The translations under genes and the position numbers were made by a program. DNA of 64,000 nt from Spirochaetia bacterium. Lineage in GTDB: Bacteria; Spirochaetota; Spirochaetia; UBA9216. The notes under the pieces were generated by a model that saw only the letters and a list, made by a program, of their open reading frames with translations, had not been told where the DNA came from and did no database searches. This document shows, one piece after another, positions 29,289-54,722 of the stretch (position 1 is the stretch's first letter; every line of letters starts with the position of its first letter). Where the stretch lies: the NCBI GenBank assembly GCA_963675665.1, contig OY776510.1, positions 4,896,001-4,960,000 on the forward strand, in the 5' to 3' direction.

Positions 29289-29379
29289 CCGCCATGGAAG
29301 GCGGATAAGCTTGATGAAGTTTGGAGAACTTATCTCCAAACTTCAGAAACGGTTTAAACATGGATGTTTAAACCGTTTC
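29289..29379 (-). repeat. Structured intergenic element E1 (three hairpins)
   Basis: GAAACGGTTTAAAC-ATCCAT-GTTTAAACCGTTTC, T, GAAGTTTGGAGA-TAAGT-TCTCCAAACTTC, CCGCC-TTCCAT-GGCGG. The first arm contains the thiolase stop codon. Confidence 0.8.
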
Positions 29380-30549
29380 CACACAAAGAGCTACACCCAT
29401 ACCGCCGCCGATACACAGGGTAGCAAGACCTTTTTTAAGGCCGCGTTTTTTCATCTCATACAGCAGGGTAACGAGAATTCTTGCTCCGCTGGCCCCAATC
29501 GGATGGCCTATTGATATAGCGCCTCCGTTTACGTTTATCTTGCTCGCGTCCCATCCGAGTTCCCTGTTTACCGAGAGAGACTGCGCGGCGAAGGCTTCGT
29601 TTGCCTCAATCAGCTCGAGATCATCAATACTCCAGCCGGCCTTGGCCAGCGCGTTTCTGACGGCTTCTACCGGTCCGATACCCATTATCGCGGGATCTAC
29701 ACCTGCCCAGCCGTAACCTGCAATCCTGGCCATCGGTTTAAGGCCTTTTTCCTTAACCGCGTCTTCACCGGCAACAAGCAGGATCGCAGCTCCGTCGTTG
29801 ATGCCTGAAGCGTTGCCCGCAGTTACTGTTCCGTCTTTCTTGAAAGCGGGACGAAGCTTTGCAAGACTTTCGGCTGTTACGCCCGCGCGGGGGAATTCAT
29901 CAGTGTCGAATACGATCGGATCGCCCTTTCTCTGGGGAATCTCGAACGGCATAATTTCGTCTTTGAATTTTCCATCCCTGATAGCCGCCTCTGTCTTGTT
30001 CTGTGAACCGGCGGCAAATGCGTCCTGTTCTTCACGGCTGATATTATATTTTTCAGCAAGATTTTCCGCTGTAATTCCCATGTGATAGTCGTTGTACTTT
30101 TCCCAAAGACCGTCGTAAACCATTGCGTCAACAATTTTACCGTCGCCCATTCTGTACCCGTTCCTGGCCTTGGGAAGCAGATAAGGTGCTATAGACATAT
30201 TCTCGGTCCCGCCTGCGACTACGATGTCGGCATCTTCGCACTTGATTGCCTGCGCAGCGGCGGCAACGGTCCTGAGTCCGGATCCGCAAACCATATTGAC
30301 TGTCTGTGCGGTTTTCTCCTGCGGAATGTCCGAATAGATCAGAGCCTGTCTTGCGCAGTTCTGTCCCTGTCCGGCCTGAAGCACGTTGCCCAGGATTACT
30401 TCGTCAACATCTGCTCCTTCAAGATTATTCCTTTTCAGGACCTCTTTTATTACCGGTGCGGCAATCTTTGCCGCCTGGATTTCGGATAGAGTTCCCCCGA
30501 AATTCCCAACTGCTGTTCTCAACGCATCTACAATGTAAACTTCTTTCAT
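29368..30549 (-). CDS. thlA: Acetyl-CoA C-acetyltransferase (thiolase)
   Basis: [28 protein letters not shown]. Confidence 0.93.
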
Positions 30550-31340
30550 TCTTTTTCCCTCCATATCGGTTTTCTTTTATTTAAAAACGCATCTGTTCCT
30601 TCCCGCATATCATTATGAGAGAAGATCAATCCGAATTTATTCATTTCATAAGCAGTCATCACTGCAGGATCATTATCAACCGCAAGGTTCAACAGCTCCT
30701 TGGCCTCTGCTACCGAATTGGGACTTGTTTTTTCCATTTCTTCAGAGACTGCAATAACTTCATCAATAAGTGTATCCGGTTCACATACCCTGTTTACTAT
30801 TCCCAGATTGAGCGCTTCTTCAGCAGTTACCATTCTTCCGGTAAAAACAAGTTCTTTTGCTGCAGCTTTTCCTATCCGATCGGTCAGCCGTTTATGGCCG
30901 CCGAATCCGGGAATCAGACCCAATGTCGCCTCAGGCAATCCTAACCTGGCTTTTTTGGAAGCGTAAGCAAAATCACAGGCGAGAACAGTCTCCAGGCCTC
31001 CTCCGAGGGCAAAACCGTTAACAGCCGCTATGGTCGGAAGCCTGAGGTTCTCAAGCTTTAAAAATACCGAATTGCCCAGCCTGCTGAACTCCGATGCTTC
31101 AACAGGCGTTTTTTTATTCATCTCGGCAATATCGGCTCCGGCAATGAAGGCCTTGCCGGCTCCGGTAAGGATAAGGCTTCGTATCGTCCTGTCGGCAAGC
31201 GCCTCGGCCTCAATTTCATCGAGAGCTGCTGATAGTTCAAACAGGACCTCTGAGCTCAGAGAATTCAGGGTGTTCTCATCTGTAAAAGTCAGAATAACGG
31301 TGTTGGAAACCCTCTCATATTTTAAATGCTTATAATCCAT
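30546..31340 (-). CDS. crt: Enoyl-CoA hydratase (crotonase)
   Basis: [31 protein letters not shown]. Confidence 0.9.
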
Positions 31341-31354
31341 AATCCCCCGCCCTT

Positions 31355-32638
31355 TTATTTAAGGCTTTTCCGGAGCTCATCGCGAAAATCAGGATGAGCA
31401 ATATTTATCAATGCTTCAGCACGCTCCCTGTTGCTTTTGCCCTTTAAATGCGCTATTCCGTATTCGGTTACGATATAATCAACGTCATGACGCGAAGTCG
31501 TTACGCATGCGCCTTCATTCAGACGAATTACAATTCGGGATATTGTTCCGTTTTTACCTGTCGACGGAAAAGCAATTATCGATTTGCCGCCTTCCGAATG
31601 CATTGCCGAACGAACAAAATCAACCTGTCCGCCTACAGCCGAAAACTGTTTCGGACCAATCATATCGGCAGCAACCTGGCCAAAAAGATCAACCTCAATT
31701 GCGGAGTTTATCGATATAAGGTTTTTCAGTCTGCCTGCAACCAGAACGCTGTTTGTATAATCAACCGGTTTCATCAGTACGGCAGGGTTATCATTTACAA
31801 AATCATAAAGCCTTTTTGTTCCCATCAGAAAGGTTGCTACGAATTTACCGGGATTAATATTGTTGTATTTATTGGTTACAATACCTTTTTCATAAAGATC
31901 CACAACCCCGTCGCTGAACATTTCGGTATGGATTCCCAAATCCTTCTTCTCTGTAAGGAAATGCAGAACCGCATCGGGAATCGCACCGATTCCGAGTTGA
32001 AGGGTCGCCCTGTCGGGGATAAGTCCTGCAATATGACTGCCGATTTTTTCTTCAATCTCGCCGATTTTCGGAAGCGGGATTTCGATCGGATCGTAATTGG
32101 TTTCTACTATATAATCTACTTCCGACACATGGATAAATGAACCATGTGTACGCGGCATTTTCGGGTTCACCTCTGCTACTACAACCCTTGCTTTTTCAGC
32201 GGCCTGCATTGTGTAATCCACCGATATCCCGTAACTCATAAAACCATGCTCATCCGGAGGCGAAACCATTATGAACGCTACATCCGAATCAATAGAACCG
32301 TCGCGGATACGTCCCGGAAGTTCGGAAAAGAAGCACGGAATAAAATCTCCCCGCCCTTCATTGATCGACCCCCTGGTTGGGCCTCCCGCAAATATTGTTG
32401 TATGTTTGAATGTTCCTTCCCATTCCGGCCCGCAATACCAGCAGTCGTGAAGCGGAACCATATGGAAGACTCTGACGTCTTTAAGTTTATCCGCGTGATT
32501 TTTTAATTCATTTGTAAGCTCAACCGGCACTCCGGCGCAGTGACCGAGGACAATCTGGTCTCCGGATCTTACGCTTTTTTCAACAGCCGTCTTGAGATCT
32601 GTTTTCTTGTTGTTGTACAGAATCTTCCAGTCTGCCAT
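31355..32638 (-). CDS. abfT: 4-hydroxybutyrate CoA-transferase (acetyl-CoA hydrolase/transferase family)
   Basis: TLQLGIGAIP, GIHTEMFSDG, GGQVDF, VTEYGIA; context. Confidence 0.85.
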   Translation of the reverse strand: MADWKILYNNKKTDLKTAVEKSVRSGDQIVLGHCAGVPVELTNELKNHADKLKDVRVFHMVPLHDCWYCGPEWEGTFKHTTIFAGGPTRGSINEGRGDFIPCFFSELPGRIRDGSIDSDVAFIMVSPPDEHGFMSYGISVDYTMQAAEKARVVVAEVNPKMPRTHGSFIHVSEVDYIVETNYDPIEIPLPKIGEIEEKIGSHIAGLIPDRATLQLGIGAIPDAVLHFLTEKKDLGIHTEMFSDGVVDLYEKGIVTNKYNNINPGKFVATFLMGTKRLYDFVNDNPAVLMKPVDYTNSVLVAGRLKNLISINSAIEVDLFGQVAADMIGPKQFSAVGGQVDFVRSAMHSEGGKSIIAFPSTGKNGTISRIVIRLNEGACVTTSRHDVDYIVTEYGIAHLKGKSNRERAEALINIAHPDFRDELRKSLK

Positions 32639-32700
32639 ATCTAACTCCTATAAAAAGTCAACCACAAGCTAAAAATATAAGCTTATGATCTAGTCGGATA

Positions 32701-33813
32701 TCAACCGACCATTACAGCTTCCCATGCTGCTGCCTGCATTTCCCTGTATTCTTTTCTAAAAGCCATTTTCATCGGATCAAACGGCTCTCTGGTTTTTAAA
32801 ATTGTATATACCAAAGTGCTCATCTTGCGGGCGGCAGCTATTACACTCTTACCCGAGCCTTTCTGCTTCTTCATCGCTGCATACTTCGTCATTATTCGGT
32901 ACGTCCCGGTCTTCTTTTGCATACGAACCATTCCCATCACCATCTGTACGAAGGCTGTCCTCAGTTCTACAGGCCCACGCTTTGTTATATGTCCATGATG
33001 TATTGTCATATTTGAGTTCTGCACCCATGGCACAAGCCCGGCGTTTGCTGCATATTTCTTCGCACTATCATATCTGCCGATATCGTCTGTATAGGCTCTT
33101 ACTGTTGCTGCTGTTATTAGACCCACGCCTGGTATTGTCTGCAGAAGCTCAACATCTTCATCGTCCTCCACAAGCTCAGCCAAAACCTTTTCAAGCTGCT
33201 TGACTTGCGATGCCTGATTATCTATCATATCCAGTAACGGTATTACCGTTTTGGCAGCGCTTCCGTAAAAGTCGTGGTCCTCGAGACCGTTCAGGATTCG
33301 CTGCCTTTCTTTTTTACTCTGCAGCTGTCCGCGTTTGGTCTCTATTCCATAACCAAGTAATAAGCCATGCACCTGGTTCTTTAACGACACAACAGATTTT
33401 ACCAGTATCGACCTGGATTTCAGCACCCTTCGAATATCCTCACTCTCTTGGGAACATAATATCGATTCAGGCAGCATGTCTTTCTCAAGAAACTCCGCCA
33501 GGGTGCGTGCATCATGTTTGTCTGTCTTTTTTACAGATTCATTCACTACCTTGAATTTCAAAGTATTCACTACAACCACTTCGACTCCAGCCTTTAACAG
33601 TTTATTGCGGAAATAACGGGCATTCCCGGTTGTTTCCACCGCTGCTCTCAACTCATATTCCTCTTCACAATATTCATCCAGCATTTTCAGAAATGCTCCA
33701 TAACCATTTCCGCTGGTCGGATACATTCCCAATTGATCAATTTTTCGGTCTTCACTTAAAAGGCATACTGTAAACTGCGTTTTGTGAAGATCCACGCCAA
33801 TACTCATCTTCAT
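32701..33813 (-). CDS. IS110-family DEDD recombinase/transposase
   Basis: IGVDLHK, VETTG, KKTDKHDA, TIPGVG, AGLVP...S. Confidence 0.95.
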   Translation of the reverse strand: MKMSIGVDLHKTQFTVCLLSEDRKIDQLGMYPTSGNGYGAFLKMLDEYCEEEYELRAAVETTGNARYFRNKLLKAGVEVVVVNTLKFKVVNESVKKTDKHDARTLAEFLEKDMLPESILCSQESEDIRRVLKSRSILVKSVVSLKNQVHGLLLGYGIETKRGQLQSKKERQRILNGLEDHDFYGSAAKTVIPLLDMIDNQASQVKQLEKVLAELVEDDEDVELLQTIPGVGLITAATVRAYTDDIGRYDSAKKYAANAGLVPWVQNSNMTIHHGHITKRGPVELRTAFVQMVMGMVRMQKKTGTYRIMTKYAAMKKQKGSGKSVIAAARKMSTLVYTILKTREPFDPMKMAFRKEYREMQAAAWEAVMVG

Positions 33814-33848
33814 GTTCTATCTCCAATAGTTTGAAGCAGTGCCTATAC

Positions 33849-34001
33849 GGTGAATTGTTCCATTCTCCTATCCGGTCTCGCAGACCATTGAATGTTTCGG
33901 TTACGGCTCTTCAATCTCCTAAACGGTCTCGCGGACCAGTAAAAATGTCGAACAGTAACCTTACTGCCTCAATTAAAGTTAAGGCAGTATATCAATTCAC
34001 C
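33849..34001 (-). ncRNA. Putative bridge/seek RNA of IS110 copy 1
   Basis: Reverse complement of 54723-54875; see copy 2. Confidence 0.7.
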
Positions 34002-34026
34002 AGCTCATGAAGACTTTTTATCATTC

Positions 34027-34167
34027 CTCCTATAAAAAGTTTCCGCATGGATGCGGGTTTTAAGAGGTGAAGTAGTAAATCTAAACTGCGTAGCAGTTTA
34101 AACTGCATTGCAGTTTAGATTTACTACTTCAAAATGATAAAATAACATGGAAGTTATTTTATCATTC
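34027..34167 (-). mobile_element. Structured element E2, putative non-autonomous IS110-end MITE in tandem with the IS
   Basis: Preceded by TATAGGAG. Starts GAATGATAAAA (same as the IS left end) and ends ACTTTTTATAGGAG (same as the IS right end). Has a 14-bp hairpin with TTCCAT loop, a 21-bp GAAG..CTTC hairpin and CCGC-ATCCAT-GCGG. Confidence 0.78.
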
Positions 34168-34226
34168 CTCCTATAAGATTTTTTGCCAAAATTCTGAAAT
34201 ACAGCTTCCAGGGCAGTTTATTAACA

Positions 34227-34255
34227 GATCAAGCTGCGTAAAAAGCAGCTTGATC
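34227..34255 (-). terminator. Stem-loop after abfD
   Basis: GATCAAGCTGC...GCAGCTTGATC 11-bp inverted repeat, weak U tract. Confidence 0.5.
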
Positions 34256-34268
34256 ATTCCGTTTATTT

Positions 34269-35732
34269 TCAATCCTTTATGCCGGCGAGATCTTTTGCAT
34301 ACTGTTTCTTTCGCTGAACATCTGCCTGACGCGAGATCATTATACGCTGGGCCTGGGGCGAGCCGGCACCGTGCATTGATTCGGTGAGATAGCCTACAGC
34401 AGCTCTTCCCATTGTCAGGTTTTCAATAAGACGAAGAAGTTTAAGCCTGTCTTTTGTTTCGACGCCCTCAACTCCGCCGAGAAATTTTTTGACCATTTCA
34501 GCAGTTTCCGGATTAGCAAGGTCTTTTGCATTCGGGGCCGTTACCATCAGACCGCCTGCAATATCCTGAAGAAGACGCGCAATCTCATAAGGGAAACGGG
34601 TAACGTTCTGCTTGCAGACATTGGCCAGCAGCAAATCGATCAGATAGTTTCCGGATTTGGTCTTCTGACCGAGCCAGCAGCATGCTACTGAACTTGACCA
34701 TATTGTTTCATTGAGATGGTTCATTTCAACAATCTTGTCTTTAACATGTGAAGCTCTTGCACAGCCGTTGTATTCCGCAATCAGCTGCGCAGCGCCGATA
34801 GCAACATCGCCTACGCCTGTTTTACATGCATAACTCGAGCGATGATAGCCGGCAAATCTTTCAACCAGCATATTTGTAAAATCATATTCGCCGTCCATGA
34901 AGATCTTTTCATTCGGAACAAAAACCCTGTCGAAAACCATCAGGGCTTCCTGTCCTCCGAAGTTGGGACTTCCGGCATCCATGTTCTCTCCATCCGGATC
35001 TTCAAGAAGTCTTGTATCACAGGACTGGCGGCCGTAAATATAAGTAATCCCTGGGTCGTCAGATTCAACAACACAGCAGACTGCGAAGTCTTTATCCTCT
35101 TCGGTCATTGTAACTGTAGGCATAATCAGGGCCTGGTGCGAGTTGATACAGCCAGTCTGATGGGTCTTGGCGCCGCTTATTACAATACCGTCGTCGCGTC
35201 TTTCAACAACATGCACATATACATCGGGGTCAGGACACTGATGAGGCCTTTTGCTTCGGTCGCCCTTCGGATCTGTCATACAACCGTCTACAACAAGATC
35301 CTTTTCTTCCACCTCAAGCATGTATTTCTTGAATCTTTCATGATAGTCTGTTCCGTATTTCTCATCCATTTCATAAGTTGTAGAGAAAGTTGCATTGAAC
35401 GCATCCATACCTACACAGCGCTGAAAACATGTGCCGCATTTCTGGCCGAGAAGTCTCTGCATCCCTACTTTCTTGTACAGCTCCTCAGGACTCTGGTGAA
35501 TATGACAAAACCTGTTTATTCTTTTGCCTGTGAATGAAGATATTTCGGTCAGATCATCTCTGTATTTTGAACCTTCCTCTGCAAGCTCATAAGTAAGTGC
35601 AATCGAATTGATAGAAGCTGCAATGATCGGGTGATCATACGGATTCTCAAGTTTTTCGCCGGCCATATATACATTCAATGGTCTTCTGTTTCTCAGGCTT
35701 GCGCGGTATTCCTTACCGGTCATCAATCCCAT
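34269..35732 (-). CDS. abfD: 4-hydroxybutyryl-CoA dehydratase / vinylacetyl-CoA isomerase
   Basis: CGTCFQRCVGMD Fe-S motif, MTDPKGDRS, GAKTHQTG, YHRSSYAC, ESMHGAGSPQAQ; start at MGLMTG behind GGGAGG. Confidence 0.93.
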   Translation of the reverse strand: MGLMTGKEYRASLRNRRPLNVYMAGEKLENPYDHPIIAASINSIALTYELAEEGSKYRDDLTEISSFTGKRINRFCHIHQSPEELYKKVGMQRLLGQKCGTCFQRCVGMDAFNATFSTTYEMDEKYGTDYHERFKKYMLEVEEKDLVVDGCMTDPKGDRSKRPHQCPDPDVYVHVVERRDDGIVISGAKTHQTGCINSHQALIMPTVTMTEEDKDFAVCCVVESDDPGITYIYGRQSCDTRLLEDPDGENMDAGSPNFGGQEALMVFDRVFVPNEKIFMDGEYDFTNMLVERFAGYHRSSYACKTGVGDVAIGAAQLIAEYNGCARASHVKDKIVEMNHLNETIWSSSVACCWLGQKTKSGNYLIDLLLANVCKQNVTRFPYEIARLLQDIAGGLMVTAPNAKDLANPETAEMVKKFLGGVEGVETKDRLKLLRLIENLTMGRAAVGYLTESMHGAGSPQAQRIMISRQADVQRKKQYAKDLAGIKD

Positions 35733-35799
35733 ATTTTTCCTCCCGGCGCCGTATTCCGGTGCCAATTACAATAATTTTTATATAAAGGGCATAATCCCC

Positions 35800-36459
35800 T
35801 TAATATTCTATTCTGACGGTCCTGATAGTGTGTTCATCAAGATCATAAAAATATGCAAGATGCCTGTTTATAAGAGCAATCACTCCGTCGGTGTCGCGTT
35901 CTTTTAGCTTGTCTATCATGTCAAAATGAAGTTTTATCATATTCAGACTCAAATCGGAGTCGACATAATAAACAAACTGCATCAGCCTGACTTTCAGATA
36001 AAGGTCTTCCATAATTTTACACAGGTTCTCGTTTTTTCCGATTATGGCCAGGCCTAAATGAAACTCGCATTCAAGACGAATCCAGTTGAAAATATCGCCG
36101 TCTTTGGCGGCCTGATAACAGGCGTCGGCAACTTTTCTCAATTCGTCGATTTCAGCATTGTTTCCGAAACGTACTGCAAGCTGGACGGCCAGGGTATCAA
36201 GGGCTATTCTTGTAAGCCCCAGGTCTGTCTTGGCTCTCCTGTCAAAAGTTACGACCTCCGCGCTGCGGTGAGGATAAAGTTTAACTATCCCCTCTTTGGC
36301 CAGGCGCTGAACAGCTTCGGTTACAGGCGTACGGCTGACGCCGAGTTTTTTTGACAGGGCGTCAACTGCCAGTTTATCCCCGCAGGCAATATCCTGCCTT
36401 AAAATCATGTCCGTGATCTGTCTGTAAACTGTTTCTCCGAGCATCTGCCGATCTGCCAT
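35800..36459 (-). CDS. GntR-family (FCD) transcriptional regulator
   Basis: LGVSRTPVTEA wHTH; FH...N...H FCD domain. Confidence 0.9.
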   Translation of the reverse strand: MADRQMLGETVYRQITDMILRQDIACGDKLAVDALSKKLGVSRTPVTEAVQRLAKEGIVKLYPHRSAEVVTFDRRAKTDLGLTRIALDTLAVQLAVRFGNNAEIDELRKVADACYQAAKDGDIFNWIRLECEFHLGLAIIGKNENLCKIMEDLYLKVRLMQFVYYVDSDLSLNMIKLHFDMIDKLKERDTDGVIALINRHLAYFYDLDEHTIRTVRIEY

Positions 36460-36472
36460 GAAATTTCACACC

Positions 36473-36539
36473 TTTGCATGTATTTTTACAGATTGCATGC
36501 AATCTTATTACATATTATACGATCCTGCGTTTTTGTCAA
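36473..36539 (-). promoter_or_regulatory. Promoter and probable GntR operator
   Basis: Perfect 16-bp palindrome AGATTGCATGCAATCT (36490-36505) plus partial TTGCATGTA; TTGACA at 36534-36539 with TATAAT/TAATAT 14-16 bp downstream. Confidence 0.6.
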
Positions 36540-36540
36540 G

Positions 36541-36577
36541 AAAAAAGAGGGCTGATTAGTAAATCAGCCCTCTTTTT
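36541..36577 (-). terminator. Intrinsic terminator after gabT (bidirectional shape)
   Basis: AAAAAAGAGGGCTGATT-AGTA-AATCAGCCCTCTTTTT. Confidence 0.85.
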
Positions 36578-36593
36578 AAACAGGTAGAGGATT

Positions 36594-37859
36594 TTATTTT
36601 AGAACTTTCTTCAACGCCTTACCAAATCTTGAAAGGCCGATAGTCATTTCGTCTTCGCTTATTACCAGAGGCGGAATCCACCTGATAATATTTCCGAAGG
36701 TTCCGCATCCGAGCATAAGCATATTCTCTTCAAGCGCCGCGGCAATTACCGCTTTGGCGGTTTCAGCATCGGGCTGTCCGTTTTTCATAAATTCTGTTGC
36801 CACCATGCATCCGCGTCCGCGAACATCGCCGATAACCGGATACTGTTTCTGAAGTTCCCGAAGGCCTTTCATAAGCTGCTCTCCGCGTGCCGCTGCATTT
36901 TCAGCAAGCTTTTCTTCCTTCATTACCTTAACAGTAGCAGCTGCAGCTGCGCATGCCATGGTATTGCCGCTGTAGGTACCGCCATGGGTTCCGGCCCTCC
37001 AGTTTTCCTGTAGCGTACGTTTATACGCCAGGCCGGAAATAGGGATTCCTGAACCCAGGCCCTTGGCCATTGTCATAATATCAGGAAGAACATTCTCATG
37101 CTGAATTGCAAAAAACTTTCCGGTACGACAAAATCCCGACTGCACTTCATCGGCTATCATCATTATACCGTGCTCATCGCAGATCTCCCGAACTGCCTGC
37201 AGGAAGCCTGCCGGCGGCACTACATATCCGCCCTCGCCAAGCAGAGGTTCAATAATTATTGCTGCTGTCTCGCTGGGCTTTGTCTGCCCGAGAAGGGTTC
37301 TTTTCAGTTCCTTAATTGCAAAGGCTTTTGTTGTTTCATCATCCCAGCCGTAGTAAAACGAATACGGATACGGAGAAACAAATATTCCCGCAGGCAGGGG
37401 CATATAACCTTCCCGGTAAACGGTCTTGCTTGTCGTCATTGCCATTGTAAGATGTGTCCGGCCGTGAAAACTTCCGTTAAAAACAATTACATTCTGCCTT
37501 CCGGTAGCATGCTTTGCCAGTTTAACCGCGGCTTCAACCGCTTCAGCTCCGCTGCTTGCAAAGAAGAAAGTATCAAGCCCCGAAGGCACAACCGTTTTAA
37601 GCTCTTCAACCAAATCGACCATGGGCTGATGATAGACAATGTTGAACTGACCAAACAGAAGCTTGTCAGCCTGCTTCTTTATTGCTTCCACAACTTTCGG
37701 GTGACAGTGCCCGGTATTTGTTACACCTATGCCGCTGGTAAAATCAAGATATTTATTCCCTTGTTTATCATAAAACCAGCAGCCTTCACCACGTTCGACC
37801 ATTATATTTGTCGAATGCGTCCATACCGATGATATTTCCTTAATTTCCTGAGGATTCAT
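36594..37859 (-). CDS. gabT: Class III aminotransferase, probably 4-aminobutyrate transaminase
   Basis: SGAEAVE, FHGRT, EPLLGEGG, DEVQSG, MAKG (PLP Lys), HGGTY; context. Confidence 0.8.
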   Translation of the reverse strand: MNPQEIKEISSVWTHSTNIMVERGEGCWFYDKQGNKYLDFTSGIGVTNTGHCHPKVVEAIKKQADKLLFGQFNIVYHQPMVDLVEELKTVVPSGLDTFFFASSGAEAVEAAVKLAKHATGRQNVIVFNGSFHGRTHLTMAMTTSKTVYREGYMPLPAGIFVSPYPYSFYYGWDDETTKAFAIKELKRTLLGQTKPSETAAIIIEPLLGEGGYVVPPAGFLQAVREICDEHGIMMIADEVQSGFCRTGKFFAIQHENVLPDIMTMAKGLGSGIPISGLAYKRTLQENWRAGTHGGTYSGNTMACAAAAATVKVMKEEKLAENAAARGEQLMKGLRELQKQYPVIGDVRGRGCMVATEFMKNGQPDAETAKAVIAAALEENMLMLGCGTFGNIIRWIPPLVISEDEMTIGLSRFGKALKKVLK

Positions 37860-37944
37860 GGTGCTCTCCTAAATTCAAAAATATTAATAATATTATGAAG
37901 AGTACCACATTCCGGATAAACACGGCTATGTTTTATTTATATCA

Positions 37945-40383: not shown

Positions 40384-40388
40384 AAAAA

Positions 40389-40508
40389 CTCCTATAGAAA
40401 CTCGACTTTAATCGTAAGCCATGGATGGCCGGTTGCAGAAGTGAAGTTTTCAAACAAAGTTTGGAAACTTCAAAATGTTAAAAATACATGGATGTATTTT
40501 TAACATTC
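40389..40508 (-). repeat. Structured element E3 with IS-like ends
   Basis: G-AATGTTAAAAATAC-ATCCAT-GTATTTTTAACATT-TT-GAAG..CTTC-AC...GCC-ATCCAT-GGC...GTCGAGTTTCTATAGGAG directly before the metH ATG. Confidence 0.8.
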
Positions 40509-41102
40509 AGCTGAAGGCAGTATCCCGTAAATTGCTGTCACCGATTTCTCGGGCATCAGCAGACAGGATTCGTTTATCCTGACGCCGATGGCCTCAAGCC
40601 CCAGCATCCGGTATATATCCTTCTGAAACCTGATGTCAAAATCTCCGTAACCTGCCGAGAAACGTCTTGAAGTCAACGCCCTTGCTTCACGTACAAGTTC
40701 ACGGGAAAAAATCTCGGCAAGCCGGTTCAGTCCTTCGTCAACTATCTCGCTTGCCGCAGCATCAGTAACGACCGCTTCGGTCAGTTTCCCTGCTTCTTTA
40801 TACCGCTCAATTTCATCAGTAACGGAACTGCCGCCGGTTATGCCCATAATCAGCAGTTGGTCCGATTCAGCCAGAAAATTGTTGAGTTTGCTGCTGTTAA
40901 ATATTTCAGCTATCGACGTTTCAACTCTAAGCGAAACGGCTTTCAGTTCAATCAGATCAGCGGTTTTCTCTATCAGGGAATCTACTTCAGCCATTGTTTC
41001 TGCCGGTATCCGGCTTGATCTGCTGATATATCCAAGCCGTTTAAGTATTCTGCTGCGCGGTACTTTAACCGGCAGATATGGAAAGCGTCTGACATCTGGC
41101 AT
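40500..41102 (-). CDS. Stand-alone methionine synthase reactivation (AdoMet-binding) domain
   Basis: RFSAGYGDF...LLMPEKSVTA motif; adjacent to truncated metH. Confidence 0.8.
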   Translation of the reverse strand: MPDVRRFPYLPVKVPRSRILKRLGYISRSSRIPAETMAEVDSLIEKTADLIELKAVSLRVETSIAEIFNSSKLNNFLAESDQLLIMGITGGSSVTDEIERYKEAGKLTEAVVTDAAASEIVDEGLNRLAEIFSRELVREARALTSRRFSAGYGDFDIRFQKDIYRMLGLEAIGVRINESCLLMPEKSVTAIYGILPSAEC

Positions 41103-41210
41103 TGTTTGAATATAACAATTTTATTAAAACTTGGCACTAGTCTTTCAGCCGTACTTGAATATTATCTGATTATCGTGTTAATTTCTGTATATTCAAGTGA
41201 CAAGACACTT

Positions 41211-41342
41211 AATGATGACAGGCGCGCTACACCTGTCATCATTTTGAAGTTTCTGGAGCTACGCACCAGAAACTTCACTCTGAGATTTCGGCGGATAAGC
41301 TGTTTTTCAGCATCCATCACACAAAAAATTTTTCGAGAGGAG
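41211..41342 (+). repeat. Structured element E5 (variant loops) in the symporter leader
   Basis: AATGATGACAGGCG-CGCTA-CACCTGTCATCATT-TT-GAAGTTTCTGG-AGCTACGCA-CCAGAAACTTC-AC, ending at the GAGGAG SD. Confidence 0.7.
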
Positions 41343-41348
41343 ATCAAA

Positions 41349-42704: not shown

Positions 42705-42719
42705 CGTATCTACTGATCA

Positions 42720-42750
42720 GGGGCAAAGCGGACTTTGCCCCTTCCCCTTT
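42720..42750 (+). terminator. Terminator between convergent symporter and hsdR
   Basis: GGGGCAAAG-CGGA-CTTTGCCCC then pyrimidine tract. Confidence 0.65.
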
Positions 42751-42764
42751 CTCTTCTTTAATGA

Positions 42765-45700: not shown

Positions 45701-46088
45701 TACAGGAATCGGAATAACAGTAATCTATCCAGGAGGTAAAATCATGCAGGCATTTAAGTGAATAGACAGCCTGCTCCTTTTTAACAGGAGATGTTGTATG
45801 AACGGCCTTATTTCCAAGGTCCTTGATGTATTTAAGCCCACGGAACAGGCGCATATCGATCAGGTCGCGGAATGAGTAATCATGAATAAGGCTTGAAAGG
45901 TTGTCCTGGTACGGAAGCTTGAGCTCATTATCATAGCTGTAAAGCCATTTAACGGCAAGCTCCAAAGCGCGCCTGGCAAGAATAGCGGTTGAGGCATAGG
46001 AAAATGCAAAACTCTTTTCCGCTTCAATACAAGCGCCGGTAAAACTGTTGTAATAGTCATGCTTGTTTAAATAATTAAAATTTCCCAT
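42765..46088 (-). CDS. hsdR: Type I restriction endonuclease subunit R (EcoEI/EcoAI-like)
   Basis: VDYVL...VEAKK nuclease, MATGSGKT, DESH, LTATP, QMIGRGTR. Confidence 0.93.
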   Translation of the reverse strand: MGNFNYLNKHDYYNSFTGACIEAEKSFAFSYASTAILARRALELAVKWLYSYDNELKLPYQDNLSSLIHDYSFRDLIDMRLFRGLKYIKDLGNKAVHTTSPVKKEQAVYSLKCLHDFTSWIDYCYSDSCTDTPFNETILPDGIQEKRTRRQLLELNEELGSKDRKLEEIRKENEELRKQLTAKREDNEQGRVFDVEEISEFETRRMFIDLELETSGWTIGSACIIEEEVSGMPNDTGLGFVDYVLYGDDGKPLALVEAKKTSADPHVGKEQARFYADCLEKRYGRRPVIFYTNGFEYFLWDDQSYPERRVSGIYTKEDLQWTHYRRTNRKSLKSISINDAVTNRAYQKMAIQAVCDTFEKGHRKALLVMATGSGKTRTAISLVDVLLRQGWVKNILFLADRRELVKQAKVNFSNLLPNLSLCNLLDEKDSPESKMIFSTYPTMMNAIDETKRKDGSRLFTVGHFDLIIVDESHRSIYKKYQAIFDYFDSSLVGLTATPKNDIDKNTYTVFDLENNVPTFAYELGEAIEEGFLVPYHTIETRLKLPEEGLHYEDLSDEEKELFEETFDDDVTDISGEEINSFLFNNDTVDLVIDDLMERGIKIEGGDKLGKTIVFAKNKKHAEFIIKRFNIKYPEYRDLFAKPIYTDIKYVDRVYEDFTTKDKFPQIAVSVDMLDTGVDVPEIVNLVFFKKVRSKAKFHQMIGRGTRLCPDLFGVGLDKDGFRIFDYCSNFEFFRENKHGKEASMARSLTENLFCIRTDIIKELQTLDYQTDDYIAYHKSLADDLWGSVNRIDHSRFNAKTRLKYINTFNKRDRWNTLSDTDTRELSIHIAPLITSTDDDELAKRFDYLMYTIIYAQITGRIASKPRARVISTADHLSRKGTVNAVKAREEIIRKVQTEEYWQNADILDHEEVRRALRELIKFIEYESKKTYYSNFRDEVLEVHENEGEYSAGEFKDYRKKVNDYLKKHADDIVVFKLRNNHKLTQPDIKHLEDLLWNTLGSKEDYENAFGEQPLLDLVIRIVGLEPEAANEQFSKFLSNESLNSNQMEFVKMIVRHIIQNGLVEKELLNGQPFNKYGNIIDLFAGHMDIAKDLVAEIDRFNSRADVS

Positions 46089-46293
46089 TTATTAATTCAA
46101 ATCCTTTCTCAGTAAGCCGATATTTCTGTGTCGGGCTATTCGGAGAATTCGGCTCGGTACGTTCTATAATACCTTCCTCCAAAGCCGGACGAATATAGTT
46201 TTTCTCAAAATTATCACGCCCTTTAAGATTCAACGCATCCATCATCTCTTTTCGAGACATATCGTTAACCATTAGAAGTCTAATCACTTGAGC

Positions 46294-46384
46294 TACTTGC
46301 CCTGTTACTTGCCCTGTTACTTGCCCTGTTACTTGTCCTGTTACTTGCCCTGTTACTTGTCCTGTTACTTGTCCTGACTTGTCC
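46294..46384. repeat. 12-bp tandem repeat (CCTGTTACTTGY, ~7 units, encodes TGQV)
   Basis: Visible directly; one unit is shortened to 10 bp. Confidence 0.9.
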
Positions 46385-46390
46385 CCCCGA

Positions 46391-46468
46391 GTCGGTACCG
46401 GGTCGGTACCGGGTCGGTACCGGGTCGATAACTGGGTCGGTATTGGGTCGGTACTGGATCGACTCCGG
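46391..46468. repeat. 11-bp tandem repeat (GTCGGTACCGG, 7 units, 3 perfect)
   Basis: Visible directly; one unit is 12 bp. Confidence 0.9.
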
Positions 46469-46968
46469 TTATCATATAGTCACGGTGAAGAACCGCGTTT
46501 ACTATTGATTCACACACAGCCTCTTCAGGAACCTCGGGGATATCTTTACACTGCACGTCCTTGATTTCATAACGCAAACGGGTATTTCGCATGATAAAAA
46601 GAACGGCATTATCAAGAGTACAGCCGGTAATCTTACCATCATCGCTGACACCGAGAAAAACAGTTCCGCCTGATGCGTTGGCAAAGGCGCACATCTTTTT
46701 TGTCAAAGAGCTTGAAAGCCTCTCCTTAAACTCAGTGCGATAGCCCTCGCCATTCTTCAGAATAAAATCCAGTTCTTCCGGGGTCATTAGTCCCTGTTTT
46801 TCCCTTTTTACAATTTACATTAGGGTAAATCTCTAAAAACTGCAGTTTTTATTGATTCCCATTATAGTTTATCGGTCAGTGTAGAAAATTGAAAGCATTT
46901 TATTAAAGGGATGCTGACAGCCCTGAAAACCAAATATAAAACAACATTTTTCATGAAAACGATTATCC

Positions 46969-48084: not shown

Positions 48085-48223
48085 AGAATCACCTGCTTCA
48101 GTTCTGTCAATGAATCGCCTATCTTCCTGCGCCCCACCTTACAGGCATTATGTGTAATTTCATTATAAATATCTGCCAATATTTTCACCTTGATTTCTTC
48201 CCAAATTTGTAATATATTTTCTT

Positions 48224-48286
48224 TAGCGGTTGCCAGCGAATCGTCTTGGTACGGTTCCACAAGAATTGGGCAATCGCTATTTTTTT
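48224..48286 (-). ncRNA. Putative DUF3800-associated structured RNA starting at the stop codon
   Basis: A7, then TAGCGATTGCC...GGCAACCGCTA (10/11 bp) enclosing an inner hairpin TCTT-GTG-GAACCG-TAC-C-AAGA. Confidence 0.55.
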
Positions 48287-50495: not shown

Positions 50496-50829
50496 GATTG
50501 CTCCAGTATTTTATGATTGGTTTATCATAAATCCAAACAGGAAATGGAACAAGAGGATTTTTATGACCCTCTCATCCTGTCCCCAGCTCATTATGCACAC
50601 TTATAAAACTTCCGACGATTTTATTTGATAATTCTTCATACAACAGCATGTTTTGCCTCCTGTTTTTATTAAAAACCCGGGAGGACAGCAAGATGAAAAG
50701 AGCAGCCAAGGATTGTACGGATTAGAACAGATAACAAACAGCATCCGTGAACCGCTTCTCCGCTATACCGTGGCCATTAATATCTTAAAAGGTATTGAGC
50801 AACCCGCTGCATGAATGTATCCTTAAACC

Positions 50830-53284: not shown

Positions 53285-54510
53285 AGTATATATACCTTTA
53301 CAGCCGTTCCTTTATTAATACCTTCCGAATTGCGCGGGATCCGCACCGTTCCGAAAGCTTCGGCAAGCATTGTTATCAGTCCCGATTCTCCATGAACAGG
53401 AACCGCCATATTTCCATCTGCAGTATGCTCCAGTTTGACAAACTGCCAGGTTTCACGCCCCGGGGCCCCGCTTATATTTTCCGTCAGAACGGCCTCCGTA
53501 TAGGTCTCAGGCGGCGGCACGGACCGGTTAAGCAGACAGACCAGATGCCGGACGATTATGCCGAAAACTACAAGCGCCGAAACCGGATGCCCGGGCAGGC
53601 CGATTACAGGCTTACCCGCAGCGTTCGCGATAATGGTGGGTTTTCCCGGTTTGAAAGCAATTCCGTGGCATAATACCCCGGGAGAACCAAGCGCCGTTAT
53701 CGCCTTAAGCGAGTAATCCTTCACGCCTACTGATGAGCCGCCTGACAGCAGCACAATATCGCTGTTCCTGTGGCACTCACGAAGAACGTCAGTCAGCGCC
53801 TGTTCATCATCCTGTATTATAAAACGATCGTATACATCACAGTCCAATTGTTCGACTGCGGCTGAGATAGTATAGGTGTTAATATCCCGGATCTGACCCA
53901 ATGCCGGCTCCTCGTCCGGACCGACAATCTCGTCGCCGGTTGAGATGACGGAAACTACCGGTTTGCGGTAAACTTCAACTTCGGTACAGCCTATTGAAGT
54001 AAGAACTCCCAAATCGGCCGGTTTTAGTTTTTTCCCGGCTTTTAGAACAACCGTTCCTTTTACAATATCATCCCCGATATTTATTACATTTTCCCTGACG
54101 GTTGCCGGCCTGAAAATGGAAATCTCGTCATCGGTAAGTTTTTCAATATATTCAATCATGACTACAGCGTCGGCCCCGTCCGGAACCATGCCGCCGGTAG
54201 GGACGTAGACAGCTTCACCCGGTTTCAGTTCCATTCCGGCAGTCTGTCCCATAGAAACCTCGCCTTTCAGCTGCAGAAACGCAGGCAGGGTTTCCGAAGC
54301 CCCTGAAACATCCGATGCTTTAACGGCATAACCGTCTTTTGTCGAACGTCTGAATGCGGGCACTGTCTCAGCAGATACCGCATCGGCTGCAAGAAACCTT
54401 CCCGAAGCATTTTCAACCGGTATTATTTCAATATCCAGGGGATATGTTTTAAAGTTCTCTTCCAACAGCTTTTTTGCTTCCGCTATTGTAACGACACTTA
54501 GTAACTCCAT
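53281..54510 (-). CDS. moeA: Molybdopterin molybdotransferase (gephyrin-like)
   Basis: STKDGYAV, TGGMVPDGADAV, STGDE, SGGSSVG, KPGKP, GLPGHP. Confidence 0.9.
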   Translation of the reverse strand: MELLSVVTIAEAKKLLEENFKTYPLDIEIIPVENASGRFLAADAVSAETVPAFRRSTKDGYAVKASDVSGASETLPAFLQLKGEVSMGQTAGMELKPGEAVYVPTGGMVPDGADAVVMIEYIEKLTDDEISIFRPATVRENVINIGDDIVKGTVVLKAGKKLKPADLGVLTSIGCTEVEVYRKPVVSVISTGDEIVGPDEEPALGQIRDINTYTISAAVEQLDCDVYDRFIIQDDEQALTDVLRECHRNSDIVLLSGGSSVGVKDYSLKAITALGSPGVLCHGIAFKPGKPTIIANAAGKPVIGLPGHPVSALVVFGIIVRHLVCLLNRSVPPPETYTEAVLTENISGAPGRETWQFVKLEHTADGNMAVPVHGESGLITMLAEAFGTVRIPRNSEGINKGTAVKVYIL

Positions 54511-54619
54511 ATTTTATCTCCTGTTTTTTAATAAAACATATCAGCCGATGAAAAACAAGAGCTCCGTTTTTTATTTCTTTATTTTACACATTGTATTATA
54601 TTTATTATATATAGAGAGG

Positions 54620-54697
54620 GAATTATGAAAAATCTTCCATGAGTTTTCATAATTAACTACACTGATCTGCCGCTTATGGCGGAATATATTATAGGAG
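54620..54697 (+). repeat. Structured element E4 (short form) immediately upstream of IS copy 2
   Basis: G-AATTATGAAAAATC-TTCCAT-GAGTTTTCATAATT ... CCGC-TTATG-GCGG ... TTATAGGAG; the start resembles the IS left end GAATGATAAAAAGTCTTCATGAG. Confidence 0.65.
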
Positions 54698-54722
54698 GAA
54701 TGATAAAAAGTCTTCATGAGCT

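Follow-up and report, generated by a model that had tools for sequence, protein, structure and literature searches.

REP/BIME, ERIC and Correia repeats are palindromic units dispersed in intergenic DNA; they are often transcribed as parts of operons, and some occur in mosaics. The IS110-family insertion sequences (IS) IS900, IS901 and IS902 of Mycobacterium avium reportedly insert after the ribosome-binding site and before the start codon, a finding attributed to Doran et al. in 1997, and we know of no miniature family associated with them. The IS110 bridge recombinases are intensely studied as programmable genome-editing tools. Natural non-autonomous partners of these elements are barely described, and our literature search gave one case with eight copies. 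This case, MITEPpu9 of Pseudomonas putida, is described as having ends like those of the IS110-family element ISPpu9, as occurring beside the IS, alone and in tandem, and as forming minicircles (PMC12288879). Related reports describe a mini-IS that moved when transposase and non-coding region were provided in trans (PMC11187229), repeats of non-coding units in tandem beside IS110 genes (10.64898/2026.08.14.744561), and REPs serving as IS targets (PMC1525189); REPs are the landing sites of ISPpu9, ISPpu10 and IS621.

Here we analyse a family of short palindromic elements in a Spirochaetia bacterium, starting from a 64,000-nt stretch of its genome (contig OY776510.1, positions 4,896,001 to 4,960,000; “the window”). 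In our view these elements are probably MITE-like: non-autonomous units related to an IS110-family (DEDD, bridge-RNA) lineage that targets Shine-Dalgarno (SD) sites. Like MITEPpu9, the elements are short and non-coding, with left and right boxes that resemble an IS110-family IS and an inverted repeat in the left box; both families lie directly beside IS copies, alone elsewhere and in tandem, and both would use the IS machinery in trans. MITEPpu9, as far as it is described, has eight copies in one strain group, carries the sRNA gene ssr9, lands in REP/BIME and has demonstrated minicircles, whereas the present family, known from sequence, has at least 38-44 copies, is genus-wide, sits at SD sites, where it introduces stop codons and a substitute SD, and is made up of three palindromes whose stems drift. 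With REP/BIME, ERIC and Correia repeats it shares its dispersed, palindromic and intergenic nature, its transcription within operons and its use as an IS110 target, but it has no RAYT and no sequence relation to them; it has IS ends, and it always stands at the same place before the next start codon and points the same way. The likeness to IS900, IS901 and IS902 lies in the orientation-specific insertion of an IS110-family element at translation initiation signals; lineage and target sequence are different.

Anatomy of the elements in the window

The window contains five elements (Table 1). An earlier note on this DNA had located them and described their folds, and both were confirmed (RNA fold z-scores of E1 to E5: -9.5, -14.9, -5.0, -6.3 and -3.3, with 200 shuffles each). 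As had also been noted, all five are oriented like the gene that follows, and each runs up to or close to the AGGAG of its start codon. The recurring build is hairpin A, TT, hairpin B, hairpin C and TTTTATAGGAG, from which 4-9 nt lead to the start codon. In the full unit, hairpin A has the form G-AATGATAAAAnnnC-NTCCRT-GnnnTTTTATCATT and is followed by TT; hairpin B is bounded by GAAGTTTG and CAAACTTC, and about 10 nt further on comes the GC hairpin C, which carries the loop of hairpin A and is followed by (A)CTTTTTATAGGAG. Units measure 85-150 bp, typically ~120, and have no consistent ORF, i.e. they are non-coding. The details claimed for the three hairpins hold largely: a WTCCAT loop is found in hairpin A of four of the five elements, with a perfect 14-bp stem in E1-E3 and an imperfect one in E4 and E5; hairpin B (TGAAGT..ACTTCA) is found in four and is missing only in the 54620 element (E5); and hairpin C, said to be usual, is present with the loop of A in E1, E2 and E3, altered in E5 and broken in E4.

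Table 1. Positions of the elements, their parts and the IS copies in the window.
Feature	Positions	Strand	Description
E1	29245..29379	(-)	thiolase stop to 3-hydroxyacyl-CoA dehydrogenase start
E1 hairpin A	29346-29379	(-)	14 bp perfect; loop ATCCAT (minus-strand reading)
E1 hairpin B	29315-29345	(-)	
E1 hairpin C	~29288-29305	(-)	
E1 AGGAG	29245-29249	(-)	downstream ATG 29238
E2	34027..34167	(-)	full canonical unit, G-AATGAT...ACTTTTTATAGGAG
E2 hairpin A	34133-34166	(-)	14 bp perfect; loop TTCCAT
E2 hairpin B	34068-34131	(-)	
E2 hairpin C	~34043-34057	(-)	
E3	40389..40507	(-)	200-aa gene to methionine-synthase-like gene
E3 hairpin A	40474-40507	(-)	14 bp perfect; loop ATCCAT
E3 hairpin B	40442-40472	(-)	
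E3 hairpin C	~40418-40430	(-)	
E3 TATAGGAG	40389-40396	(-)	downstream ATG 40383
E4	41211..41342	(+)	degenerate copy, upstream of sodium:solute symporter gene
E4 hairpin A	41211-41243	(+)	12 bp perfect (14 with one mismatch); unrelated loop
E4 hairpin B	41245-41277	(+)	
E4 hairpin C		(+)	region broken
E4 GAGGAG	41337-41342	(+)	then GTG 41349
E5	54621..54697	(+)	short copy without B; IS copy 2 directly after
E5 hairpin A	54621-54654	(+)	14 bp with one mismatch; loop TTCCAT
E5 C-like hairpin	54670-54682	(+)	loop TTATGG
E5 TATAGGAG	54690-54697	(+)	
IS copy 1	32645..34026	(-)	1,382 bp; left end G-AATGATAAAAAGTCTTCATG, right end TTGACTTTTTATAGGAG; then 6 nt and ATG (32638) of acetyl-CoA transferase-like gene
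IS copy 1 transposase	32701-33813	(-)	370 aa, DEDD
IS copy 1 non-coding region		(-)	~215 nt; putative bridge RNA
IS copy 2	54698..56079	(+)	then 5 nt and ATG (56085) of CIA30-domain gene
IS copy 2 transposase	54911-56023	(+)	
IS copy 2 right-end TATAGGAG	56072-56079	(+)	

To the left of E2 stands the host sequence TTATAGGAG (34168-34176), to its right IS copy 1; in E3 the TAA of the upstream ORF falls inside the 5' arm of hairpin A. The left end of E1 is not IS-like, the outer part of the 5' arm of its hairpin A being the coding end of the thiolase gene (GAA ACG GTT TAA). E2 and E5 both directly adjoin IS110-family IS copies, which the earlier note overlooked.

A genome-wide and genus-wide family

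We scanned the 5.15 Mb genome with a strict pattern (TCCRTG-N11-16-TGAAGTWT), which has 33 matches against 0 for the reversed control; relaxed rules give at least 38-44 copies, and there are further degenerate ones. Perfect stems around C-WTCCAT-G are bimodal genome-wide (398 with 1-7 bp and 19 with 13-15 bp). Within the genus the strict matches number 33, 22, 17, 6, 3 and 2 per genome (22 in G005 and 17 in G004), while the 245 other genomes of the class have 0-6 each. The prediction of a dispersed, genome-wide family was thus borne out by the genome scan, and the class scan extends it to the genus. The local density from which it had been argued is not representative, since five elements in 25 kb exceed the genome average of about 1 per 100 kb. 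Elements occur alone, directly before IS copies or in tandem, including an array of five units with a period of 112 nt.

Two known types of repeat or signal were considered and rejected. An assignment to REP/BIME with RAYT (REPtron) fails because the Y1/RAYT transposase (PF01797) has 0 matches in this genome, the same search being positive in 6 of 14 control genomes. As to intrinsic terminators, in a scan of 29000-42000 the only hairpin of the elements to be flagged is C of E2, with a T run that starts 4 nt after the stem, and the number of terminator-like sites in this interval is 15, with 14.0 expected. At the gathering threshold of Rfam 15 no family matches anywhere in the window, and around the second IS copy and E5 (54500-56200) there is no match even at E<=1.

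The IS110-family insertion sequence

The genome has 15 copies of the IS, two of them in the window, with a mutual identity of 99.7-100%. The 370-aa ORFs match DEDD_Tnp_IS110 (9.3e-18) and Transposase_20 (1.4e-17) in Pfam. The 5' non-coding region of ~215 nt contains two repeated modules bearing AGGAG-type strings, the left end folds with a z-score of -4.55, and a -35-like TTGACT at the right end faces the left end. With DEDD and Transposase_20 domains, a structured non-coding end and site-specific insertion, the IS is of the IS110-family bridge-RNA type. IS621, ISEc11 and ISPpu10, as far as they are characterised in the respective reports (PMC11208160, PMC11208158, PMC11187229), share with it the DEDD and Transposase_20 recombinase, the structured 5' non-coding region, the -35-like TTGACT at the right end, and site- and orientation-specific insertion; the target of the window IS differs from theirs, consisting of AGGAG, an A-rich spacer and ATG instead of a REP, with the guide and its pairing to the target assigned by eye.

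Relatives of the IS with 53-79% amino acid identity are found in Oceanispirochaeta, Syntrophales, Marispirochaeta, Treponema and other MAGs. Their left ends read AATGATAAAAA directly after GGAGG, and their right ends TTGACTTTTTATAGGAG, followed by N5-9 and ATG. The translation initiation region is the natural target of this IS110 lineage across several phyla, and the replacement SD would avoid harm. No element-type hairpin is present in the flanks of the 80 IS-relative loci. Because the end sequences are conserved in relatives from other phyla that lack elements, the IS did not copy its ends from the elements. Among 10 other genomes of the same bacterial family, G001-G005 included (draft assemblies of 40-480 contigs), none matches the IS protein; PF01548 has a single match in these drafts, in G004, and it is of another type. 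That G005 and G004, with their 22 and 17 pattern matches, yielded no partner IS speaks against the MITE-like reading, with the reservation that the assemblies are drafts. In this genome the IS is a recent arrival, and the right ends of the elements are among its targets.

Elements and IS share their ends and target

The first 10-21 nt of the elements are those of the IS left end, and the last 12-14 nt are those of its right end. The match reaches 21 of 22 positions on the left (AATGATAAAAAGTCTTC-ATGA) and 14 nt on the right (ACTTTTTATAGGAG). The 15-mer GGAGGAATGATAAAA occurs 34 times in the genome, with 0.016 expected: 15 times in the IS, 14 times in elements with a TCC loop and twice more in elements with other loops. 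For the 14-mer ACTTTTTATAGGAG, with an expectation of 0.076, there are 19 occurrences (15 in the IS and 4 in elements). Every one of the 15 IS copies is preceded on the left by ..AGGAG and has a right end GACTTTTTATAGGAG, followed by 4-7 nt and ATG. The elements occupy the same kind of site, namely after the gene's own AGGAG(G), 4-9 nt before the start codon and co-oriented with the gene, with TATAGGAG as their right end. In a set of 33 elements picked by loop plus B-start only, 29 are followed on the same strand by an SD, a start codon and an ORF of at least 60 aa, with a median of 102 nt separating loop and start. The elements thus have the ends, the target and the orientation of an IS110-family IS of the same genome, which is enough to explain the co-orientation and the terminal AGGAG. 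GGAG lies within 8 nt of the left end in 17 of the 33 elements; the other 16, including E1 and E3, have no clear left GGAG, so that an origin as MITE-like relatives requires decay or remodelling of the left junction.

We infer that an IS110-type recombinase inserted the elements, with a bridge RNA whose donor would be the shared ends and whose target would be (TTT)AGGAG together with the A-rich spacer. Such an insertion would be tolerated because the left end provides TGA-TAA stops for the upstream reading frame and the right end brings a replacement SD in the form of a new AGGAG. The family then amounts to a many-copy, genus-wide natural record of ends sufficient as donor.

Could the elements instead be host repeats of the REP/BIME kind, which spread by other means and merely serve as a preferred landing pad for the IS, the GC stem-loop 5' of the target acting as a specificity gate? 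A target-encoded stem-loop is reported as a second specificity determinant for ISPpu10 (10.64898/2026.03.19.712850). Here, 6 of the 15 IS copies lie directly after an element, TATAGGAG sites are IS-occupied in 4 of 27 cases when they follow an element versus 5 of 114 when plain, and there are genomes with elements in which no such IS turned up. The difference in occupancy is small, however, and can be accounted for by the perfect match of the element right end, while none of the 15 IS right ends, which present the same target, is occupied. With no Y1/RAYT transposase in the genome, and with neither the IS left end (up to 21 nt) at the start of the elements nor the IS-like AGGAG on both of their sides explained, we regard a landing-pad origin as improbable.

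The identity of the ends, and the age and divergence of the copies, would also fit elements that are remnants of full IS copies, each having lost its interior by deletion on site. The interior (3' arm of A, B and C) has no counterpart in the IS, a point that also tells against the MITE-like reading, and recurs in the same order in all copies, which independent deletions would not yield, and units exist as tandem arrays. In-place decay is therefore very hard to credit.

Presence, absence and age

In contigs from the related strains X3 and X7, position 32644 is joined to 34168. This joint removes exactly the IS and E2 (1,523 nt); 8-9 nt are compatible with either side, and what is left is an intact empty site with a single TTATAGGAG. 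E1 is present in X3, where the contig is colinear across it; an orthologous element with a different stem exists in G004, and none was found in G005 or G006. E3 is absent at the orthologous junction in all four congeners compared (G001, G003, G004 and G005), as is E4 upstream of the orthologous gene in three of three (G001, G002 and G003). Of 12 elements in G004, nine have an orthologous site in the present genome; five of these sites are shared, and the four G004-only ones are short intact SD-ATG junctions here. The check between strains that the earlier note had proposed thus reveals polymorphism at orthologous sites (E3, E4, the G004 set, and E2 with its IS).

Among dispersed copies, the best pair reaches 92.4% identity (131 nt compared), most pairs are at 75-85%, and the nearest copy to E2 has 89.8% identity. 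As there are no near-identical dispersed copies, no element shows signs of having been moved by the present IS, which is a point against the MITE-like reading. The family is old, its dispersed copies being at most 92% alike and some being shared between species. At the five shared sites the flanking genes have only 71-80% DNA identity, and yet the TCC of the loop and the B base are kept. This persistence at five of nine sites suggests a constraint on resident copies beyond what selfish mobility and template switching explain.

Perfect palindromes and their upkeep

The claim of a conserved shape with variable, self-compensating stems is well supported. Of the cells in the stems, 92.2% are paired versus 62.0% in shuffles (0 of 500 shuffles), and 13 of the 14 stem pairs show changes on both sides. 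Among ~1,530 pairs in 57 elements, the non-Watson-Crick pairs comprise 21 G:T and 27 A:C (G:T/A:C per stem on the sense strand: 16/12 in A, 3/12 in B and 2/3 in C). Palindromes remain perfect even in degenerate copies, and between orthologous copies the stem sequence differs while the palindrome is kept, e.g. AATTAAAAAAGT[C]C versus AATTAGATAAGTAC; in a second orthologous pair, which shares a GGAG-type B pair, the A stems are AATGATAAAAATAC and AATAAAAAATTGC. The orientation of the loop is fixed, with 34 of the TCC type and 2-3 flipped among 53 hairpins chosen by shape.

These properties bear on the label of structured leader elements given in the earlier note, if it is taken to mean a cis-regulatory RNA. 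On such a reading they would be host cis-acting RNA elements in leaders or between cistrons, whose mRNA hairpins would tune the stability or translation of the downstream gene; the NUCCRU loops, with their anti-SD-like UCC, would be read by a protein or paired with the SD, and the IS would have evolved to land there. Such a role would suit the co-oriented position close to the next start, the location inside operons (and hence transcription), the strong predicted folds, the fixed loop orientation, and the loop and B base kept at five of nine sites common to deeply diverged species. But the strand-specific AGGAG target already accounts for the co-orientation, and IS relatives in other phyla keep the end sequences without elements, so that the IS is not the copier. 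G.U is avoided like A.C, unlike in RNA-selected helices; Rfam has no matching family, and the downstream genes in the window are functionally unrelated (dehydrogenase, CoA-transferase-like, methionine-synthase-like, symporter and CIA30-domain). Insertions are polymorphic, and congeners have intact short junctions. Together with the IS-type ends, these findings speak against a cis-regulatory RNA, which we consider unlikely, though a shade less so than the landing pad.

The stems are DNA palindromes, and selection on an mRNA fold does not explain stems that are variable and still perfect; their strict Watson-Crick pairing points to upkeep at the DNA level. Of the two causes that had been offered, selection on structure and regeneration of palindromes, the second therefore fits better, there being no excess of G.U. 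We think that the main agent of this perfection is intrastrand template switching, which would correct and extend quasi-palindromes as the DNA is replicated. This process is described as perfecting imperfect inverted repeats and extending the identity of their arms, and it is known from E. coli and yeast reporters as a cause of mutation hotspots (PMC7202029, PMC3820800). The compensated substitutions, symmetric indels and outward extension into the flanks seen in the family fit it, with the difference that an established hotspot mechanism would here be a candidate force maintaining a repeat family.

A further contribution may come from selection for a hairpin in the single-stranded DNA of a transposition intermediate. 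Recent preprints reportedly describe single-strand circles and top-strand transfer for IS110 elements, and in rolling-circle plasmids the single-strand origins combine a conserved 6-nt loop with stems that vary, as the present family does. A tentative and rather doubtful extension is that the three strictly Watson-Crick palindromes with their fixed, strand-specific NTCCRT loop are working parts of such an intermediate: once excised, the strand would form the hairpins, which would act as a priming or protection signal, or else hairpin A might be formed by “half-match” joining of a left end to an inverted left end. Were this the case, no large natural family of non-autonomous elements guided by bridge RNA would precede the present one, and dozens of genes across the genus would owe their ribosome-binding site and an upstream stop to a mobile element.

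The family provides a natural data set on the long-term persistence of perfect short DNA palindromes that lack RNA-type wobble pairs. To annotators it is a warning that strong covariation in intergenic hairpins need not imply a functional RNA. The palindromes can also lengthen: that of E1 extends into the coding end of the upstream thiolase gene, and in the element at genome position 2244202 the stem has reached 19 bp and the start of hairpin B is overwritten.

Structure of the window elements

Re-reading of the window sequence confirmed all five elements (E1 to E5) that the earlier note had placed there. In the direction of the next gene, each begins with a long, AT-rich hairpin A, which is separated by one or two T from hairpin B (TGAAGT...ACTTCA); a short GC hairpin C follows, and an AGGAG closes the element 4-9 nt ahead of the start codon. 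The folds far exceed those of shuffled sequences, with z from -3.3 to -14.9. The hairpin A stem, described earlier as always 14 bp long, is a perfect 14 bp in E1, E2 and E3, but has one mismatch in its 14 bp in E5, and in E4 has 12 perfect base pairs or 14 with a mismatch. The loop C-[A/T]TCCAT-G is seen in four of the five, as had been claimed, that of E4 being unrelated. Hairpin B is absent from E5 only, and not from E4 as previously stated, while hairpin C, rightly called usual and carrying the same loop, is intact in E1-E3, altered in E5 and broken in E4. What had been overlooked is an insertion sequence (IS) of 1,382 bp, two copies of which adjoin E2 and E5.

A Rfam search of the window gave no matching RNA family, so that a described RNA family was rejected; a terminator scan spoke against intrinsic terminators as a reading of the elements. 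About 60 nt upstream from the left flank of E2, and directly behind the HpaB-like gene, there is an ordinary terminator-like hairpin of 11 bp, and the E2 site may therefore start a separate transcription unit.

Coordinates of elements, insertion sequences and other repeats
Feature	Location	Remarks
E1	window 29245-29379 (-)	
E2	window 34027-34167 (-)	
E3	window 40389-40507 (-)	
E4	window 41211-41342 (+)	
E5	window 54621-54697 (+)	
First IS, copy 1	window 32645-34026 (-)	abuts E2
First IS, copy 2	window 54698-56079 (+)	abuts E5
Terminator-like hairpin	window 34227-34255	
Bridge-RNA-like strand UUUAGGAGAUUGAAG	window 54805-54825	
Left junction resembling this strand	window 34130-34170	one example
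Tandem array of five element units	G000:C1:1652399-1652891	112-nt period; between 266-aa and 267-aa ORFs
Tandem element pair	genome 836312/836419	
Tandem element pair	near genome 4279405	
Element with 19-bp stem	genome 2244202	
Second IS110-family IS	G000:C1:2621202-2622705 and seven other places	
Other palindromic families	G000:C1: 241322, 386395, 1352610, 1885873, 3303984, 3306346, 4206757, 4993873	examples

A covarying family confined to one genus

The genome that holds the window (G000; 5.15 Mb, one contig, 43% G+C) was scanned in full. Perfect stems around C-WTCCAT-G are bimodal genome-wide: those of 1-7 bp number 398 and those of 13-15 bp 19, and three have 9-10 bp. With the loop relaxed to NTCCRT and at most 2 mismatches allowed, the scan returned 64 hairpins, 45 of them with 13-14-bp stems, and about 48 of the 64 are followed downstream by B and then C in the same order. 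The strict pattern TCCRTG-N11-16-TGAAGTWT, which covers only the loop and the start of hairpin B and ignores arm pairing, matched 33 times in G000, compared with 0 for the reversed control, and 22, 17, 6, 3 and 2 times in its congeners; counts were 0-2 in the other five genomes of the taxonomic family and 0-6 in a further 240 genomes of the class. The elements, suspected earlier of forming a genome-wide dispersed family, are therefore a real and dispersed one, confined to one genus.

For the analysis of covariation, the 33 strict-pattern elements, picked regardless of arm pairing, were aligned in fixed register. Hairpin A cells are paired in 92.2% of cases vs. 62.0% in 500 shuffles (0/500 reach the observed value), and shifting the partner by 1-3 columns lowers pairing to 43-48%. 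Changes on both sides are found at 13 of the 14 hairpin A pairs (120 cells vs. 37.8 expected), which bears out the variable, self-compensating stems of the earlier note. There are 26 distinct hairpin A arms among the 33 elements; in 28 of these elements the two arms pair at 12 or more of the 14 positions, and arms taken from different elements average 7.7 of 14. Elements also occur in tandem pairs and in an array of five units, adjacent units of which are about 98% alike.

Other palindromic repeats are present in G000. One family with the core CTCTAAAAAC-TGCA-GTTTTTAGAG has at least eight copies, and a third, GTTTA(T/C)TTATT-12 nt-AATAA(A/G)TAAAC, lies near a second IS110 type in two places; both probably serve other mobile elements as ends or targets. 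Two genomes of one genus in another family of the class (G029 and G061) contain four copies each of a different hairpin, TCCATG-TTTA-CATGGA followed by TTTGAAGTTT. It has the words TCCATG and TTGAAGTTT in common with the elements and could be a distant cousin or a chance likeness.

An IS110-family insertion sequence at Shine-Dalgarno sites

The 370-aa ORF of the IS encodes an IS110-family recombinase (DEDD_Tnp_IS110, 9.3e-18; Transposase_20, 1.4e-17), and G000 contains 15 copies at 99.7-100% identity. All 15 are located directly upstream of a gene and in its orientation, between AGGAG and the start codon. The left flank ends in ..AGGAG, often TTATAGGAG, and the IS itself reads G-AATGATAAAAAGTCTTCATGAGC ... 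GTGGTTGACTTTTTATAGGAG, followed by 4-7 nt and ATG. Because all copies lie at this position and carry their own TATAGGAG, we conclude that the IS targets Shine-Dalgarno (SD) sites and swaps the SD for its own.

The left non-coding end of the IS (215 nt) folds well (z = -4.55) and has two modules that resemble each other, in which GGUCYGCGAGACCG precedes UUUAGGAGAUUG or GAUAGGAGAAUGG and whose 5' partners, ACAUUUUUAC and AACAUUCAAU, are complementary to AAAAATG and GAATG. From this reading by eye we infer that the left end resembles a bridge RNA, with a putative target loop for (TTT)AGGAG, an A-rich spacer and ATG, and a putative donor loop for TATAGGAG|GAATG. The AGGAG-type strings in both RNA modules fit a bridge RNA that is directed at translation initiation regions. 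The bridge-RNA-like strand UUUAGGAGAUUGAAG also resembles the left junction of an element with hairpin A looped out (GGAGG^TTGAAG). None of the IS copies occupies such a junction, and the resemblance may be due to chance.

Relatives of the recombinase (53-79% amino acid identity) were found at 80 loci (L011-L090) in MAGs labelled Oceanispirochaeta, Syntrophales, Desulfobacterales, Marispirochaeta, Treponema, Dysgonamonadaceae and others. The left junction GGAGG|AATGATAAAAA is common to the IS and to these relatives, which come from MAGs of several phyla, and the right end TTGAC(T/A)TTTTATAGGAG, then N5-9 and ATG, recurs likewise. Both the ends and the SD target thus belong to an IS lineage that is widespread.

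Ends and insertion sites shared by elements and IS

The canonical element starts directly after GGAGG with AATGATAAAA. Four elements start with AATGATAAAAAGTC-[C/T]TCCATGA, which agrees with the IS left end at 21 of 22 positions, and the element terminus (A)CTTTTTATAGGAG is that of the IS right end. The string GGAGGAATGATAAAA occurs 34 times in G000 (15 in IS copies, 16 in elements, two at ordinary gene starts and one elsewhere) vs. 0.016 expected from base composition, and ACTTTTTATAGGAG occurs 19 times (15 in IS copies, four in elements) vs. 0.076. An SD, a start codon and an ORF of at least 60 aa follow downstream on the same strand in 29 of the 33 strict-pattern elements, with a median loop-to-start distance of 102 nt; the other four comprise two inner units of a tandem array, one weak SD and one false pattern match. 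GGAG within 8 nt of the left end is kept in 17 of the 33. In 13 of them, the stop codon of an ORF that comes from upstream on the same strand and is 100 codons or longer falls within the first 10 nt, where AATGATAA provides both TGA and TAA in a single frame. An element directly precedes six of the 15 IS copies.

The family works like a MITE, showing four of the six defining features, and we consider it likely that the elements are a MITE-like family related to IS110-family insertion sequences. If an element were circularised, its RE-LE junction would read ..TTTTTATAGGAG|GAATGAT... One study describes a mini-IS with intact ends as mobile when transposase and non-coding region are supplied in trans (PMC11187229).

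Several other readings were rejected. A REP/RAYT system would need its partner, and the genome has no Y1 transposase (RAYT/IS200-605). Integron attC sites have the same pattern of conserved shape and variable sequence, but the elements, which have the ends of the IS, are found between core genes throughout the genome. The frame of a small ORF in hairpin A (SD and ATG in GGAGGAATGAT) is not conserved across copies, CsrA-type GGA loops occur on the antisense strand only, and a search for a promoter inside the element found no consistent sigma-70-like site.

Occupied and empty sites

At the E3 junction in four congeners (G001, G003, G004 and G005), the genes are 0-12 nt apart or overlap, with an ordinary SD and no element. 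E4 is absent upstream of the symporter gene in G001, G002 and G003. The E1 site holds an element also in G004, and none in G005 or in G006. In the reverse comparison, 12 elements of G004 were checked; three gave no BLAST hit in G000, and of the nine with an orthologous gene there, five have a counterpart at the G000 site; the other four sites are empty, G000 having a short SD-ATG junction there.

Contigs from two public sequencing runs, X3 (labelled as another species) and X7 (marine metagenome), join window position 32644 to 34168. The joint skips 1,523 nt, which correspond precisely to E2 together with IS copy 1, and a stretch of 8-9 nt fits either side; the allele without the insertion thus reads ..CTTATAGGAG|TTAGATATG... 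E1 is present in X3, where one contig is colinear across it. Neither set of contigs covers the interior of the IS, X3 also leaves 40616-46591 uncovered, and the X7 contigs end at both borders of E3. Joints such as 34037 to 40438, element to element, were dismissed as repeat artefacts. One X7 record has 28 other letters in place of E1; at a depth of 2.6 and a likeness threshold of 85, it may come from another organism.

Upkeep of the stems

Why do the stems vary yet stay perfect? In 57 elements (44 in G000 and 13 in G004 loci; about 1,530 pairs), non-Watson-Crick cells are rare and symmetric, with 16 G:T and 12 A:C in hairpin A stems, 3 and 12 in hairpin B, and 2 and 3 in hairpin C. Helices selected as RNA are normally rich in G.U pairs, and on the transcribed strand only. 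Perfect palindromes persist without the canonical loop, in E4 and in 17-19 of 53 hairpins chosen by shape alone. Orthologous copies in G000 and G004 show compensated substitutions and symmetric length changes. Moreover, stems extend into their flanks: the outer 6-8 bp of the hairpin A 5' arm of E1 are the coding end of a thiolase gene (GAA ACG GTT TAA in G000, GAA ATG GTN TAA in relatives), and the 3' arm matches; the G004 orthologue has a different stem, GGTTAATTGAAC, which again runs into the last codon and stop; and one 19-bp stem has overwritten the first bases of hairpin B. These four facts point to upkeep of the stems at the DNA level. The earlier note had offered selection on structure or a palindrome-regenerating mechanism, and the rare, symmetric G:T and A:C cells and the palindromes extending into flanks favour the latter, acting on DNA. 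Intrastrand template switching, which perfects quasi-palindromes and lengthens arm identity (PMC7202029, PMC3820800), would yield all four patterns and is our putative mechanism.

The loop TCC is nearly invariant, with 34 in one orientation and 2-3 flipped, and the loop, the base of hairpin B and both ends are kept in resident copies across species whose flanking genes have 71-80% DNA identity. Since template switching gives loops no protection, this conservation needs another cause. Possibly the copies are renewed by conversion or re-insertion; possibly the hairpins matter to the host, e.g. in mRNA, or to the element at the DNA level. A role in mRNA would suit RNA leaders, a reading of the elements that we consider improbable. 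As to the element itself, recent preprints describe transfer of the top strand and single-strand circles for IS110 elements (10.64898/2026.08.31.748434, 10.1101/2025.10.25.684509) and a target stem-loop as a specificity gate for one of them (10.64898/2026.03.19.712850). A role of the hairpins in a single-stranded transposition intermediate is thus conceivable, though we hold it to be rather doubtful.

Age of the elements and relation to the present IS

Identity reaches 92.4% over 131 nt in the closest dispersed pair of elements and is 75-85% in most pairs, and five copies lack any BLAST partner; the nearest copy to E2 is 89.8% identical. None of the ten other genomes of the taxonomic family, searched as draft assemblies, yielded the IS, and a single IS110-type domain, of another type, was detected in G004. 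The elements are old and the IS is young, and therefore the present IS has probably not moved the present elements. Most likely, the MITE-like family descended from earlier residents of the same IS lineage, and the right ends of its elements are now good IS targets. The IS occupies 4 of 27 TATAGGAG sites after an element vs. 5 of 114 plain sites; a stem-loop gate for its targeting was rejected, as this modest difference is explicable by sequence match alone.

The nearest described system is MITEPpu9. Compared to it, the element family has an SD target, a built-in replacement SD and stop codons, and three drifting palindromes, and it differs in copy number and genus-wide spread. The combination of an SD-targeting IS110 and a miniature family was not described in any paper that our literature search returned.

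G000 also contains a second, different IS110-family IS, with eight transposase matches and seven copies of about 1,504 bp at 99.9-100% identity. The copy at 2622705 abuts the disrupted hairpin A of an element, and behind this element comes a copy of the first IS; three mobile units are thus nested at one gene start.
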